DNA of 64,000 bases from Escherichia phage fDHCT2, in sequence record OR427838.1. One strand, written 5' to 3'. Below the pieces are notes generated by a model. That model was not told where the DNA came from. It made no database searches and saw only the letters and a list, made by a program, of their open reading frames with translations. This document shows positions 1-37,317 of this stretch, piece by piece. The position numbers and the translations under genes are program-made. Within the stretch, counting starts at the first letter, position 1; each line of letters opens with the position of its first letter.

Positions 1-1073
1 ACGGCAGTAATGGCTTGCTGCTTATGAGTAGCTATCTGAGATTTAATACTCAATGCTTTATTACGTTGTTCGGTTACTTGGTCCTTAATGAGCTTGAGTT
101 CTTGGTACTGCTCGTTAATCTTATCTAAAGATTTTTGAAGCTCAAAGTTCTTATCCTTAATTTTAGTAAGGATATTTCCGTGCTCTTCTAGCCCTTGCAT
201 ACATGTAGGACAGCTGCCACCAGTTTCGTATAATTTCACGACCTTAGTAAAGGTTGCCATATCATTCTTGATTGCAAATCCTTTATTGCTCAGGTCACTC
301 ATGGAGTTGCTAGGGTCATCATCGACGACGACATTGAGTAATTCATCAGTTAGTTTTTCTATATTGCCCTTCGCAGTCCTGGCTTCTTTAACGAGCTCGT
401 CATACATTACTTGTAGTCTTGCTGCGTTCTCGCCAGATAATTTACGTTGACGTTCTTCGTTGTCATTATAAATTTTAATCTGTTGGGTAATAGAATCCTG
501 TTTAACGTCTATCACCTGGATTTGGCTATTAGTCTCACGAATCAGAGATTTGTTCAACTTATCCATATCCGCTAGTACAGAAACCTCTAAAAGGTCTTCC
601 ACCAGCTTTCGACGCGCTGGGGTTGACAAACCCATGAAGGGGGTATACCCTGCCGTGCCAAGAACGACAATCTGTTTGAAGCTTGCATAGGACATTCCGA
701 TAAGCTGTTCAAATTCTGCTTGGAAGTCTTTACTGCTGGCAGATTCATCAAGACGTTCACCGCCACAAGAGATTTCAAAAACGTTCGGTTTTTGCCCACG
801 TTTGATGTAGTATTCTTTGCCATCATATTCCATCCACAGTTCGACCAAAAGGTCTTTCTTGTTACTTGAATTAATCAACTGCCCTTTCTTAACATCGCGA
901 AAAGGCTTACCAAACAGAGCAAATGTTACGGCTTCAAGGAATGTTGATTTCCCTGCACCATTTTTACCAGTGACTAAGGTCTTTTGGACCTTATCAAGTT
1001 GGATTGTAATAGGTTGCTGGCCTACCGACATAATATTTTTATACGTTACTTTCTTTAACTTAAACGTTTTCAT
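1..1073 (-). CDS. 46: Recombination endonuclease subunit gp46 (SbcC/Rad50-like ATPase); N-terminal part only, C-terminus lies beyond window start
   Basis: Minus-strand ORF running off the window; N-terminus MKTFKLKKVTYKNIMSVGQQPITIQLDKVQKTLVTGKNGAGKST with Walker A; matches T4 gp46 from memory; ATGA overlap with upstream ORF. Confidence 0.9.
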   Translation of the reverse strand, partial: MKTFKLKKVTYKNIMSVGQQPITIQLDKVQKTLVTGKNGAGKSTFLEAVTFALFGKPFRDVKKGQLINSSNKKDLLVELWMEYDGKEYYIKRGQKPNVFEISCGGERLDESASSKDFQAEFEQLIGMSYASFKQIVVLGTAGYTPFMGLSTPARRKLVEDLLEVSVLADMDKLNKSLIRETNSQIQVIDVKQDSITQQIKIYNDNEERQRKLSGENAARLQVMYDELVKEARTAKGNIEKLTDELLNVVVDDDPSNSMSDLSNKGFAIKNDMATFTKVVKLYETGGSCPTCMQGLEEHGNILTKIKDKNFELQKSLDKINEQYQELKLIKDQVTEQRNKALSIKSQIATHKQQAITA

Positions 1074-33921: not shown

Positions 33922-34386
33922 TTATTTGATTTGTTTAGCAGACCAGATACGGTCTTTGATGATTTTCTGAATATCTTCAACATACTCTAAGTCGTGAGCA
34001 TGCGGATTATCTTTGAAGCTATGTGCTCGTGCCAGTTTCTGGCCTTCTGTTTTGATTACTAAAAGCTCTTTAAGAATTGCTTCATACTTAGAAATGATTC
34101 CTTTAGCGATATTTTTTTCTTGAGCGGCTTTAGGGTCCGCTTTTGACGCAGGTGCTTTACCTGTAGCTTTCTGGAACAATTCACCTGATGCAGCTAGGCT
34201 TTTAAAAACTCGGCTAACAGTATTAGCATTAGTAAAACCTTCGGCTTTAAAATCTTTAATAAAACGGAAACGTTCTTCATCAGAGGCGTCTTTGTAAGAA
34301 TATTTACCTGCTTGAATTGCTGCAATCGCGGCGGCTTTTACATCTGAACTAGATTGTTCGGTCAAAAATTCATTGTAAGTTTTCAT
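33922..34386 (-). CDS. internal-protein-like protein with capsid targeting sequence (154 aa)
   Basis: N-terminus MKTYNEFLTEQ (CTS-like); Lys/Ala-rich. Confidence 0.55.
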   Translation of the reverse strand: MKTYNEFLTEQSSSDVKAAAIAAIQAGKYSYKDASDEERFRFIKDFKAEGFTNANTVSRVFKSLAASGELFQKATGKAPASKADPKAAQEKNIAKGIISKYEAILKELLVIKTEGQKLARAHSFKDNPHAHDLEYVEDIQKIIKDRIWSAKQIK

Positions 34387-34427
34387 TATTATTTCCTAAG
34401 TTAATTAACTTATCTATTTATTATGCC

Positions 34428-34454
34428 AAAAAGCCCCAACCTTTCGGAAGGGGC
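34428..34454 (-). terminator. rho-independent terminator after the tRNA/stable-RNA cluster
   Basis: minus-strand gcccc-ttccgaaaggtt-ggggc + TTTTT. Confidence 0.5.
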
Positions 34455-34469
34455 TATGCCTTGCGGTAA

Positions 34470-34560
34470 CCTTGTCGGGGTTCCACCTGCTAGGCAAGTG
34501 TTTGTACGAAACGCCAGGATTCGAACCCGGTTATTAAGCAGTTGACGCTACTCAATATTT
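34470..34560 (-). ncRNA. tRNA-like / stable-RNA candidate (no clean cloverleaf)
   Basis: minus-strand T-arm-like ccgggTTCGAATcctgg with pairable acceptor-like ends cggaacg/cgtttcg, but no convincing D or anticodon arm. Confidence 0.25.
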
Positions 34561-34836
34561 TTAAAAGGCCATATCTCGACCATATCCGAACGTTCCGTCA
34601 AAAACGCTACTCGGCTTACGGCAAAGATATTTCCTCGAATCGATAATTAGGTGCGCCGTTTCTGCTGTGATGTAAGGGGACATTAACAGATCGTAAAGAT
34701 TTGTTAATGCCAGTCCTTACTCAGGGAACATCAGTCCGACGACTTACCGGTAGCGACCCGGTTTCTTGTTTGTTGCGCCGGTGAATGCTGGTAATCAGTC
34801 TTCATACGACGGCTTGACTATATAATAGTCTTCATT

Positions 34837-34911
34837 TGGTATCCCGCCCTGGGATCGAACCAGGACCGCAAACTTAGAAGGATCGTATGCTATCCATTAC
34901 ACCAGCGGGAC
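34837..34911 (-). tRNA. tRNA-Arg (anticodon UCU)
   Basis: hand-folded cloverleaf: acceptor gtcccgc/gcgggat, anticodon loop cuUCUaa, T-arm cctgg-TTCGATC-ccagg, encoded CCA. Confidence 0.7.
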
Positions 34912-34916
34912 ATAGT

Positions 34917-34993
34917 TGGTGACCCGGACCAGATTTGAACTGGTAACCTTTCCCTTATGAGGGGACTGCTGCTAACCATTGAGCTACAGGGCC
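34917..34993 (-). tRNA. tRNA with CAU anticodon (Ile2-lysidine type or Met)
   Basis: resembles E. coli tRNA-Ile2: anticodon loop cuCAUaa, T-arm accag-TTCAAAT-ctggt, encoded CCA; acceptor stem has one mismatch. Confidence 0.6.
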
Positions 34994-34998
34994 TTAAT

Positions 34999-35265
34999 TT
35001 AAATTACAAATCCAGCAGGGGCATTATCATCTTTAGCCATGTGCTGAATTGTATGATAAGTCATTTCTTCAGGAGCAACCAGATAAGCCGCAACGTTAAC
35101 TAGTGGAATTATTTTTGGTTTAGCGAACGTGCTATCAGAAATTGCCATAAAGGGCTCGCCGTCGGTCTCAACTTCGCCAAATTGGCACTCGTAAGAAATA
35201 GAACAACGTTTGGTGGTGGTTGTCTTGGTTTTAGGGTCATAAAAAGCTAATTTTAATACTAACAT
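34999..35265 (-). CDS. hypothetical protein
   Basis: 88-aa ORF just upstream of the tRNAs. Confidence 0.45.
   Translation of the reverse strand: MLVLKLAFYDPKTKTTTTKRCSISYECQFGEVETDGEPFMAISDSTFAKPKIIPLVNVAAYLVAPEEMTYHTIQHMAKDDNAPAGFVI

Positions 35266-36370: not shown

Positions 36371-37317
<947 letters not shown>

Follow-up and report, generated by a model that had tools for sequence, protein, structure and literature searches.

The stretch that follows the tRNA genes in Escherichia phage fDHCT2 contains homologs of two stable RNAs of T4, species 2 (rnaD) and species 1 (rnaC), an identification confirmed by alignment to the T4 record X03016. We interpret the locus, two rare-codon tRNA genes followed by rnaD and rnaC, as the tail of a tRNA/stable-RNA operon in a T4-type (Dhakavirus-like) phage, and the rnaC product as a tRNA mimic that probably folds as a four-way junction; we place the probability of identity and fold taken together, with function left aside, at about 0.85. 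The genes themselves are already known as classical T4 stable RNAs, and the fold model for rnaC may be new. On the minus strand of the 64,000-nucleotide stretch of DNA that was analysed (the window), the order is tRNA-Ile(CAU), tRNA-Arg(UCU), a 66-nt insert, rnaD, rnaC, a 48-nt trailer and a terminator (Table 1). A preliminary description of this DNA had placed a T-arm-like element in the ~380 nt before the terminator and proposed either a stable RNA resembling T4 species 1/2 or a degraded tRNA. The T-arm-like element is there, and the homology to X03016 bears out the first of the two proposals, but the interval does not hold a single element or one remnant: two genes and the 66-nt insert occupy it, together with the trailer.

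Table 1. Features of the tRNA/stable-RNA locus, in minus-strand order, with the evidence for each
Feature	Position	Strand	Basis
tRNA, anticodon CAU, homolog of T4 tRNA-Ile, CCA encoded	34917..34993	-	ARAGORN; Rfam tRNA, 50.9 bits
tRNA-Arg(UCU), CCA encoded	34837..34911	-	ARAGORN; Rfam, 48.8 bits; 75/75 versus T4
66-nt lineage-specific insert between tRNA-Arg and rnaD core	34767..34832	-	Absent from T4
rnaD (T4 species 2 RNA) homolog core, 118 nt	34649..34766	-	105/118 identical to X03016 annotation
rnaC (T4 species 1 RNA) homolog, 137 nt	34506..34642	-	134/137 identical to X03016 4741-4877
Conserved trailer, rnaC to terminator, predicted hairpin	34455..34502	-	T4 alignment; fold
Intrinsic terminator, GCCCC...GGGGC hairpin then UUUUU	34428..34454	-	Sequence; fold; T4 homology

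The order tRNA-Arg, rnaD, rnaC, trailer and terminator is that of T4 tRNA subcluster II, and in a collinear alignment rnaC has its T4 position, 3′ of tRNA-Arg and species 2 and 5′ of the operon terminator. Identity to T4 is 97.8% for rnaC and 89% for rnaD. Three differences from T4 are evident: (i) the 66-nt insert lies between tRNA-Arg and rnaD; (ii) the 3′ end of rnaD is CCU here and CCA in T4 and (iii) segB is missing, as are the subcluster I tRNAs for Gln, Leu, Gly, Pro, Ser and Thr, and tRNA-Ile sits 5 nt from tRNA-Arg. Related phage records number 766 to 818, with rnaC or rnaD annotated in some; in many genome records the stretch is entered as hypothetical proteins or 'tRNA-OTHER'.

Only two tRNAs had been recognized at the outset, and this count holds. 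ARAGORN finds tRNA-Arg(tct) and the CAU tRNA in the whole 64 kb window and Rfam agrees; a search of the interval for additional canonical tRNAs with ARAGORN and Rfam cmscan found none. The two tRNAs, both members of the cloverleaf family RF00005, are also the only cmscan matches at the gathering threshold across the 64 kb window and at E ≤ 10 across positions 34300–35100, and no Rfam family for rnaC or rnaD was returned at either threshold. The CAU tRNA had been likened to tRNA-Ile2. It differs from the T4 tRNA-Ile of X03016 at one of 74 aligned positions, a near-identity that fits the tRNA-Ile2/lysidine reading, and it carries C4–G69 and C5–G68, which we take to be TilS determinants. Its sequence fits a tRNA that would read AUA after modification of C34. 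The tRNA-Arg, 5 nt away, is identical to that of T4. AGA and AUA are rare codons in E. coli, and in the long open reading frames of the window they make up 18.5% of the Arg codons and 15.5% of the Ile codons, respectively. The two tRNAs would provide decoding capacity for these codons, which the phage uses often.

The T-arm-like element, CCGGGTTCGAATCCTGG, lies at 34530..34514 of the minus strand, and the preliminary description was accurate both in noting pairable ends on either side of it, CGATTCG (34642..34636) and CGTTTCG (34513..34507), and in finding no canonical D or anticodon arm around it; ARAGORN and the Rfam tRNA model leave it uncalled. In our model of rnaC, these ends form a 7-bp acceptor stem with two invariant U·U mismatches. 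A long, irregular arm of ~70 nt (34635..34566) with the apical loop UUGACG (34601..34596) and a second, 10-bp hairpin (34557..34532) with the loop CGUCAA (34547..34542) stand where a tRNA has its D and anticodon arms. The T arm comes next, and the discriminator U (34506) is followed by ACA (34505..34503). In this fold the acceptor stem and T arm together match a tRNA's 'top half'. The mature species 1 RNA would consist of the 137 nt annotated in X03016 and an added CCA.

Comparison of 25 distinct rnaC homologs from T4-type phages supports this fold. The 53-pair model has 92.4% of its cells paired, versus 37–44% when the pairing partners are slid, and 24 pairs show double-sided (compensatory) changes, versus 2–9 in the slid controls. 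Acceptor pair 3:134 is G–C in 14 sequences and A–U in 11, and the middle pair of the T arm is G–C in 11, U–A in 11 and A–U in 1. All five pairs of the apical stem co-vary, as do 8 of the 10 pairs in the second hairpin, and RNAalifold recovers the same helices. Four unrelated long-arm sequences independently fold alike, with a 3–4-nt 5′ bulge, a 5-bp stem above it and a 6-nt loop. The rnaC stretch has a minimum free energy (MFE) z-score of −4.45, and the insert together with rnaD one of −3.85; along with the covariation across homologs, these values indicate structure beyond chance. An acceptor pairing of the long-arm segment CGGAACG with the 3′ strand, which underlies an ARAGORN 'tRNA' reading, was considered and rejected: where T4 has a G·U pair, Karamvirus-type phages have A/C. 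The acceptor pairing that uses the 5′ end is preserved between T4 and the Karamvirus-type phages, with A–U changed to G–C.

The resemblance of rnaC to canonical and class II tRNAs extends to a 7-bp acceptor stem, a 5-bp T stem that directly abuts the 3′ strand of the acceptor, a 7-nt UUCGAAU loop, a discriminator and an N-C-A end. Like tRNA genes, rnaC occurs in tRNA arrays; in Karamvirus-type phages it lies between tRNA-Trp and tRNA-Gly, 5–6 nt from each, a tRNA-like spacing. With the covariance model, each locus yields a single copy, and the second hairpin is aligned with the variable arm of tRNA-Ser. Some variation is seen at the tRNA-like end. Marfavirus-type Klebsiella phages encode U-CCA at the rnaC 3′ end where the others have U-ACA, and the T loop of one group is the non-canonical UGCAUGC. 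Unlike a tRNA, rnaC lacks both the D arm and the anticodon arm with its loop, has a ~70-nt arm instead and carries tandem U·U mismatches in the acceptor stem. Over positions 34428–34836, which cover both rnaC and rnaD, there is no canonical tRNA call by ARAGORN and no match to the Rfam tRNA model at E ≤ 10.

A tRNA top half on a non-tRNA body is also found in the tRNA-like domain of tmRNA, in mascRNA and in the tRNA-like structures of plant viruses. No tmRNA is reported here by ARAGORN or Rfam. Unlike tmRNA, rnaC is short (137–140 nt) and lacks a tag reading frame, the series of pseudoknots and the G3·U70 pair, position 3:70 being A–U or G–C. No curated Rfam model of a YrlA Y-RNA-like mimic matches rnaC or rnaD at E ≤ 10, and the open acceptor end of rnaC is presumably a further difference from YrlA.

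The 6-nt loops of the rnaC long arm and second hairpin are exact complements. The pair UUGACG/CGUCAA is present in 23 of the 25 sequences, and UUGGCG/CGCCAA replaces it in Marfavirus-type Klebsiella phages. That the complementary loops change together in one clade suggests that they form a kissing loop, although the covariation amounts to one independent compensatory event and the invariance elsewhere is uninformative. Calculated duplex energies are −5.5 or −7.6 kcal/mol for matched loops and −0.4 or −4.9 kcal/mol for mixed ones. Because the arms differ in length (~25 bp versus 10 bp), an intramolecular kiss requires a sharp bend, and an intermolecular rnaC dimer would also fit the loop data. 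Kissing complexes such as TAR–TAR*, in which two 6-nt loops pair fully, are a close parallel to two complementary 6-nt loops with one compensatory change; the proposed rnaC contact could be intra- or intermolecular. The D-loop/T-loop contact of tRNA is another loop–loop interaction with which it can be compared.

The rnaD model is structured, yet it is not tRNA-like. It begins with a 5′ hairpin, ACCGG-GUCGCUA-CCGGU. The long irregular stem that follows is closed by GUCGUCG/CGGCG(C)AC, and its apical hairpin is variable. Across 13 homologs, 91.7% of the cells are paired, versus 30–51% in slid controls, and nine pairs show compensatory changes. The insert comes between tRNA-Arg and the core, and after the tRNA the match to T4 extends over just the first 3–4 nt. 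At the other end, the 3′-terminal CCA of the T4 annotation is missing (the window has GCGCAC-CU); relatives end in CCG, CAG or CCU, so a 3′ CCA is not conserved in the family. A candidate pairing between the rnaD loop CGCUAC and the rnaC bulge GUAGCG has no support: chance alone would produce such a 6-mer, and phages without rnaD have the same bulge sequence. Karamvirus-type phages are without rnaD and phage JS10 is without rnaC; judged from these genomes, each of the two genes is dispensable in some lineages.

Two stem-loops lie in the 66-nt insert, one of them the hairpin GACTAT-TAT-ATAGTC (34830..34816). The insert is present in only 26 phage records, at 98.8–100% identity, all of them from phages of E. 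coli, Shigella or Salmonella. UGJNEcP3, the sole carrier whose taxonomy was checked, is a Dhakavirus, and with taxonomy taken from this one carrier the insert appears confined to Dhakavirus-type phages. Collinear blocks are shared with rnaD (CGTCG, GACTGAT, CAGCA and CGGCGCA), giving a chain score of 24 versus 14.4 ± 4.7 for shuffled sequences (57 of 2000 shuffles as high, p about 0.03); plain local alignment of the two is not significant (56 of 500 shuffles as high). Tentatively, the insert may be a truncated duplicate of rnaD, and it would represent a lineage-specific addition on the rnaD 5′ side.

Further copies were sought in several ways. A metagenome scan with a gapped pattern, which proved too loose, gave 120 loci, all of them chance matches by nhmmer, and further patterns run on IMG/VR yielded no new variants. 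In a genome scan, a strict pattern gave 0 matches and a looser one gave 98 loci, all chance; within the reach of such exact-pattern scanning, no bacterial or archaeal copy was seen. A blastn search of the rnaD and rnaC stretch against 5,426 E. coli genomes returned no match, so no obvious host RNA is mimicked at the sequence level.

What these RNAs might do can be considered in light of the fold. RNase P and the CCA-adding enzyme are expected to act on tRNA mimics that have an acceptor and T-arm top half. The tRNA-like half could be what makes rnaC a substrate for host tRNA maturation, in which RNase P would cut the 5′ end and the 3′ end would be trimmed and its CCA added or repaired. Such maturation would free rnaC from the polycistronic transcript and make it very stable; its body, locked by the kissing loop, would be the functional module, and rnaD would be a separate structured RNA freed by the same processing events. 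With less than even confidence, we propose that rnaC takes no part in decoding and serves as a tRNA decoy or adaptor for a tRNA-recognizing host or phage protein, possibly host-specific or anti-defence. A narrower version, which we regard as unlikely, is that the kissing-loop-locked rnaC is a T4-group decoy or adaptor directed, for example, against a host tRNA-targeting nuclease or sensor, with rnaD and its partial duplicate tuning host range. The possible anti-defence role is suggested only by gene neighbourhood, the anti-CBASS gene acb1 lying 1.7 kb upstream of the locus, and by one evolution experiment, in which a T4-like phage adapting to host ECOR34 acquired a convergent SNP in rnaD (PMC12685909). 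Northern blots show that RNAC and RNAD of T4 are real late RNAs, with species 1 accumulating as a discrete, stable product of about 140 nt (PMC9697503), and the literature gives their roles as unknown (PMC12685909, PMC9697503). If the decoy reading is true, two T4 stable RNAs without a role since the 1970s would at last have one. The comparative fold of rnaC supplies concrete mutations and assays for this old question, and could seed a covariance model that corrects annotation in several hundred T4-type genomes.

Two alternatives deny rnaC and rnaD any role of their own in trans. They could be decaying, functionless tRNA-gene relics carried in the operon. T4 with deletions in the tRNA region is viable on laboratory hosts, one or the other gene is missing from some lineages and only the acceptor stem and T arm are left in rnaC. 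The 5′ end of rnaD also resembles the 3′ strand of the anticodon stem plus the variable arm of T4 tRNA-Ser (20/24 identical, z = 5), and the sole other matches of the covariance model are class II tRNA-Ser genes, at 25–26 bits. Against this, rnaC is closer to T4 than are rnaD or the trailer and terminator (91%), compensatory changes maintain the helices across genera while the loops are invariant, the architecture of the long arm has survived its replacement by unrelated sequence and rnaC is kept as a discrete unit within otherwise functional tRNA arrays. Because rnaC and rnaD are clearly under structural selection, they are not decaying, and we consider the relic explanation improbable; 'degraded tRNA' may describe their distant origin rather than their present state. 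An exclusive role in operon processing and stability, through recruitment of RNase P and shielding of the upstream tRNAs from 3′ exonucleases, seems rather unlikely too. The T4-type location at the 3′ end of the operon, right before the terminator, is consistent with it, as are the tRNA-like top half and the conserved, structured trailer, but in Karamvirus-type phages rnaC is in the middle of a tRNA array rather than at the 3′ end. A mere RNase P handle would need neither a conserved 70-nt arm nor complementary invariant loops nor two invariant U·U mismatches, and in their mature form the RNAs build up as stable species (PMC9697503).

The remaining alternatives assign the stretch a different kind of product. 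Base-pairing regulation of phage or host mRNAs would agree with late expression (PMC9697503), with the label 'small regulatory RNAs', given without evidence in the literature (PMC12685909, PMC9697503), and with conserved single-stranded stretches in rnaD (GUUCCCUG and AGAAA) and in the rnaC linker (UUUUAAAAAU). It is nonetheless improbable: no target was found, the blastn search of 5,426 E. coli genomes was blank, and the best-conserved rnaC loops would pair with one another. Still less probable is a functional acceptor RNA that is aminoacylated and used on or off the ribosome. The acceptor stem, T arm, discriminator and N-C-A end are all present, one clade encodes CCA and ARAGORN calls part of rnaC 'tRNA-Phe' in COW86c and 'tRNA-OTHER' in G9062. 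However, rnaC lacks a 7-nt anticodon loop, a D arm and G3·U70, the Karamvirus-type A/C contradicts the alternative pairing on which ARAGORN relies, and in the window rnaC is called neither by ARAGORN nor by the tRNA and tmRNA models of Rfam. To our knowledge, the combination of C1–G72, U73 and tandem U·U fits no E. coli identity set. Finally, it is hardly credible that the stretch encodes small proteins, as the 'hypothetical protein' CDSs in several GenBank records would have it. Such annotations are found here in many records, and frames do exist: 34–40-codon ORFs at 34423–34545(+), 34542–34646(+) and 34561–34683(-) and a 24-codon frame from 34805(-). However, the substitutions compensate one another within RNA helices and are not of the synonymous kind, the frames lack conservation (the start region is missing from Karamvirus-type phages, and the upstream ATG from JS10 and L037) and the T4 products are characterized as RNAs (X03016 annotation; PMC9697503).

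With regard to expression signals, the minus strand has no T4 late-promoter motif TATAAATA in the 5 kb upstream, and a sigma-70 scan gives no excess over shuffles. A simple terminator scan does not list 34428..34454, probably because of an internal mismatch in the stem; the terminator is homologous to the 'pot. terminator' of X03016. The trailer folds with z = −2.4 and is retained in JS10, the phage that lacks rnaC.

By sequence and synteny, the stretch between tRNA-Arg and the terminator belongs to the rnaC/rnaD family of T4 (species 1 and species 2 RNA, respectively). Pairwise alignment of the window with X03016, the T4 tRNA-region record, is collinear, and the annotation of that record runs tRNA-Ile, ORF5 (segB), tRNA-Arg, species 2 RNA, species 1 RNA and potential terminator. 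The trailer, which extends from rnaC to the terminator, and the terminator itself are together identical to X03016 at 72 of 79 positions. All features of the cluster lie on the minus strand, including the T-arm-like element with pairable ends that the preliminary description placed ahead of the terminator. Its suggestion of a stable RNA like T4 species 1/2 is borne out by collinear homology to both T4 species. Its reading of the ~380 nt as one remnant needs a refinement: the T4-type stable RNA stands, but the stretch resolves into four parts, namely the insert (a block between tRNA-Arg and the rnaD core), rnaD, the spacer with rnaC, and the trailer. Canonical tRNA, tmRNA and a Y-RNA-like mimic were each tested as identities of rnaC/rnaD and rejected.

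Features of the tRNA/stable-RNA cluster (window coordinates) and elements of rnaC (rnaC numbering)
Feature	Position	Strand	Remarks
CAU-anticodon tRNA	34917-34993	-	ARAGORN; Rfam cmscan 50.9 bits
tRNA-Arg(UCU)	34837-34911	-	ARAGORN; Rfam cmscan 48.8 bits
Insert	34832..34767	-	66 nt; not in T4
rnaD homolog	34766..34649	-	core 105/118 identical to T4 species 2
Spacer rnaD-rnaC		-	6 nt
rnaC homolog	34642..34506, then ACA	-	134/137 identical to T4 species 1
Pairable ends CGATTCG / CGTTTCG	34642..34636 / 34513..34507	-	
T-arm-like element CCGGGTTCGAATCCTGG	34530..34514	-	
Trailer		-	48 nt, conserved
Terminator	34454..34428	-	hairpin and U-run
rnaC (a) acceptor-like stem	1-7 with 130-136		
rnaC (b) long irregular arm	8-77		
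rnaC (c) A-rich linker			
rnaC (d) 10-bp hairpin	86-111		6-nt loop
rnaC (e) one A, then T arm	113-129		
rnaC (f) discriminator U137, then A/C-C-A			

The rnaC fold is based on an alignment of 25 distinct homologs in which pairs were counted for an explicit structure, with controls in which partners were slid by 1-3 columns. Standard pairs occupy 92.4% of cells versus 37-44% in the slid controls, two-sided changes occur at 24 of 53 pairs versus 2-9, and RNAalifold independently gives the same nested helices. In the acceptor-like stem, pair 3:134 is G-C in 14 homologs and A-U in 11, and each of the 25 has U.U at 4:133 and 5:132. The apical 5-bp stem of the long arm co-varies at every pair (5/5), and four unrelated long-arm sequences (T4 type, L041, VPA32 and Marfavirus type) fold separately to one shape, which has a 6-nt loop and, under the apical stem, a 3-4-nt 5' bulge. 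Eight pairs of the 10-bp hairpin co-vary; the middle pair of the T arm is G-C in 11 homologs, U-A in 11 and A-U in 1. The T stem adjoins the 3' strand of the acceptor, as it does in tRNA. The T loop is mostly UUCGAAU, but a group of IMG/VR contigs (L012, L030, L033) has UGCAUGC with the stem retained, so a canonical T loop is not universally required. A tRNA-like 3' end is supported by the Marfavirus-type Klebsiella clade, which encodes U-CCA where all other homologs have U-ACA. With a covariance model derived from these aligned homologs, each locus yields a single rnaC; the only other matches of the model (25-26 bits) are class II tRNA-Ser genes, whose long variable arm aligns with the second hairpin of rnaC.

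Two 6-nt loops of rnaC, UUGACG and CGUCAA, are exact complements and are unchanged in 23/25 aligned sequences. Marfavirus-type Klebsiella phages have UUGGCG and CGCCAA, a difference that most likely reflects a single evolutionary event, one compensatory change from A-U to G-C. Duplex energies are -5.5 and -7.6 kcal/mol for matched loops versus -0.4 and -4.9 for mixed ones, and the probability that any two of the three hairpin loops would be perfect 6-nt complements by chance is roughly 3/4096.

The 13 distinct rnaD homologs hardly vary over the 5' 46 nt and the 3' 23 nt, which flank a variable hairpin. The fold opens with a 5' hairpin (ACCGG-GUCGCUA-CCGGU) and continues as a long irregular stem, with 91.7% paired cells versus 30-51% in slid controls and 9 compensatory pairs; the closing helix does not vary, and pairing there is predicted only. 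The 3' overhang is 2 nt. Its end is not tRNA-like, since CCA occurs only in T4 and CCU, CCG or CAG elsewhere. The first 23 nt of rnaD are similar to the anticodon-stem 3' strand and variable arm of T4 tRNA-Ser (T4 locus L001, 1347-1433 versus 379-401; 20/24 identical, z = 5 versus shuffles), a resemblance that hints at tRNA ancestry. The insert folds into two small stem-loops and has collinear blocks in common with the conserved segments that close rnaD. Plain local alignment of the two is not significant, and the score of the block chain is reached by 57 of 2000 shuffles; the blocks are a weak suggestion of relatedness.

Megablast against phage genomes matched 766 records, X03016 among them, the best being Escherichia phage UGJNEcP3, a Dhakavirus (98.9%). 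With sensitive blastn the stable-RNA stretch is found in 818 phage records, with hosts that include Escherichia, Shigella, Yersinia, Salmonella, Enterobacter, Citrobacter and Erwinia; further searches added Klebsiella, Edwardsiella and more Citrobacter phages. No copy was found in 5,426 E. coli genomes, nor by pattern scans in which each bacterial or archaeal species was represented by one genome. Both genes are present in phages of T4-type organization (taxonomy read for T4 and T6, Tequatrovirus; VR7, Gaprivervirus; and UGJNEcP3). JS10 (L006, 699-900) keeps rnaD, trailer and terminator; the missing segment is exactly the spacer, rnaC and ACA, and the junction is GCGCACAG|AACACTTGCC. Conversely, rnaC without rnaD is the arrangement in Karamvirus-, Moonvirus- and Marfavirus-type phages; in Karamvirus-type arrays rnaC lies between tRNA-Trp and tRNA-Gly with a gap of 5-6 nt on either side, placed like one more tRNA gene. 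Only 26 records contain the insert, at 98.8-100% identity, and all are E. coli, Shigella or Salmonella phages; the one checked for taxonomy is a Dhakavirus. In Klebsiella phage Clarke_MM3 (L164, 531-600), a GC-rich stretch of ~70 nt between tRNA-Met and rnaC contains the inverted repeat GGGGTGG...CCCACCCC and could be another small structured RNA.

The genes at the locus are already known, an ordinary feature that the preliminary description guessed correctly. What may be new is the covariation-supported rnaC fold with its loop-loop complementarity (parts may have been drawn in structural papers of the 1970s-80s), the behavior of rnaC as a self-contained unit within tRNA arrays in other genera, and the lineage-specific insert.

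On northern blots, T4 RNAC and RNAD build up late during infection (PMC9697503), and they have no known function (PMC9697503; PMC3014915). The analysis shows the homology to T4 genes, the folds and the tRNA-array context. Beyond these, the acceptor and T-arm half would make rnaC an RNase P substrate, and its 3' end would be trimmed, with CCA addition or repair. Such processing would account for the tRNA-like spacing of rnaC in arrays, for the 137-nt species 1 annotation in X03016, which ends at the discriminator, and for the CCA encoded in one clade. That rnaC is a chargeable acceptor RNA seems very improbable, and a role for rnaC/rnaD as an operon processing or stability module is unlikely.

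The invariance of the tandem U.U pairs and the missing anticodon arm argue against decoding by rnaC, and the conserved body, locked by its loops in our model, argues for a specific binding function. We therefore tentatively favor rnaC as a non-decoding tRNA decoy or adaptor, with a probability of roughly 0.35. It is doubtful that the two RNAs are a relic, and equally doubtful that they act as base-pairing sRNAs. Weak, circumstantial hints for the decoy or adaptor come from a convergent rnaD SNP that arose as a T4-like phage adapted to one E. coli host (PMC12685909) and from acb1, an anti-CBASS gene that lies upstream of the cluster at a distance of 1.7 kb (36640-37095, minus strand; 151 aa; Pfam PF23474, 197.9 bits; PHROGs family label 'RNA ligase').

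The preliminary description had counted only two cloverleaf tRNAs, Arg-UCU and CAU, and ARAGORN and Rfam cmscan agree: ARAGORN finds no other tRNA gene in the 64 kb window, and cmscan finds nothing further at gathering thresholds over the window or at E<=10 over 34300-35100. By pairwise alignment tRNA-Arg is identical to the X03016 copy (75/75). The CAU tRNA, described as resembling tRNA-Ile2, matches T4 tRNA-Ile at 73 of 74 aligned positions (one difference) and encodes CCA, whereas the T4 copy does not. The cluster is indeed reduced, to tRNA-Ile and tRNA-Arg from the eight tRNAs plus segB of the T4 region. The 5-nt gap between the two genes (34912-34916, minus strand) looks like an empty homing site. 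The segB homing-endonuclease gene occupies the matching position in T4 and T6, and in the relatives KIT01 and LHE83 a homing-endonuclease gene is inserted within the cluster stretch. Among the Arg codons in the window's long ORFs, 18.5% are AGA (8.4 per 1000), and among the Ile codons 15.5% are AUA (10.9 per 1000). Both values are several-fold higher than in E. coli, which fits the usual rationale for carrying these two tRNAs.

Small ORFs are the sole rival explanation of the stretch that we exclude. A 24-codon frame, MKTDYQHSPAQQTRNRVATGKSSD (34731-34805, minus strand), begins in the insert, enters rnaD and is in register with the T4 AUG-AGA-AAC...UGA mini-frame; JS10 and L037-type phages do not conserve it, and we therefore judge it a coincidence. 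In the sequence records rnaC and rnaD are systematically misannotated. Annotation tools label the 3' 96 nt of rnaC 'tRNA-OTHER' in G9062 (L168, 475-570) or 'tRNA-Phe(gaa)' in COW86c (L003, 754-849), and many records have 'hypothetical protein' CDSs drawn over both genes.
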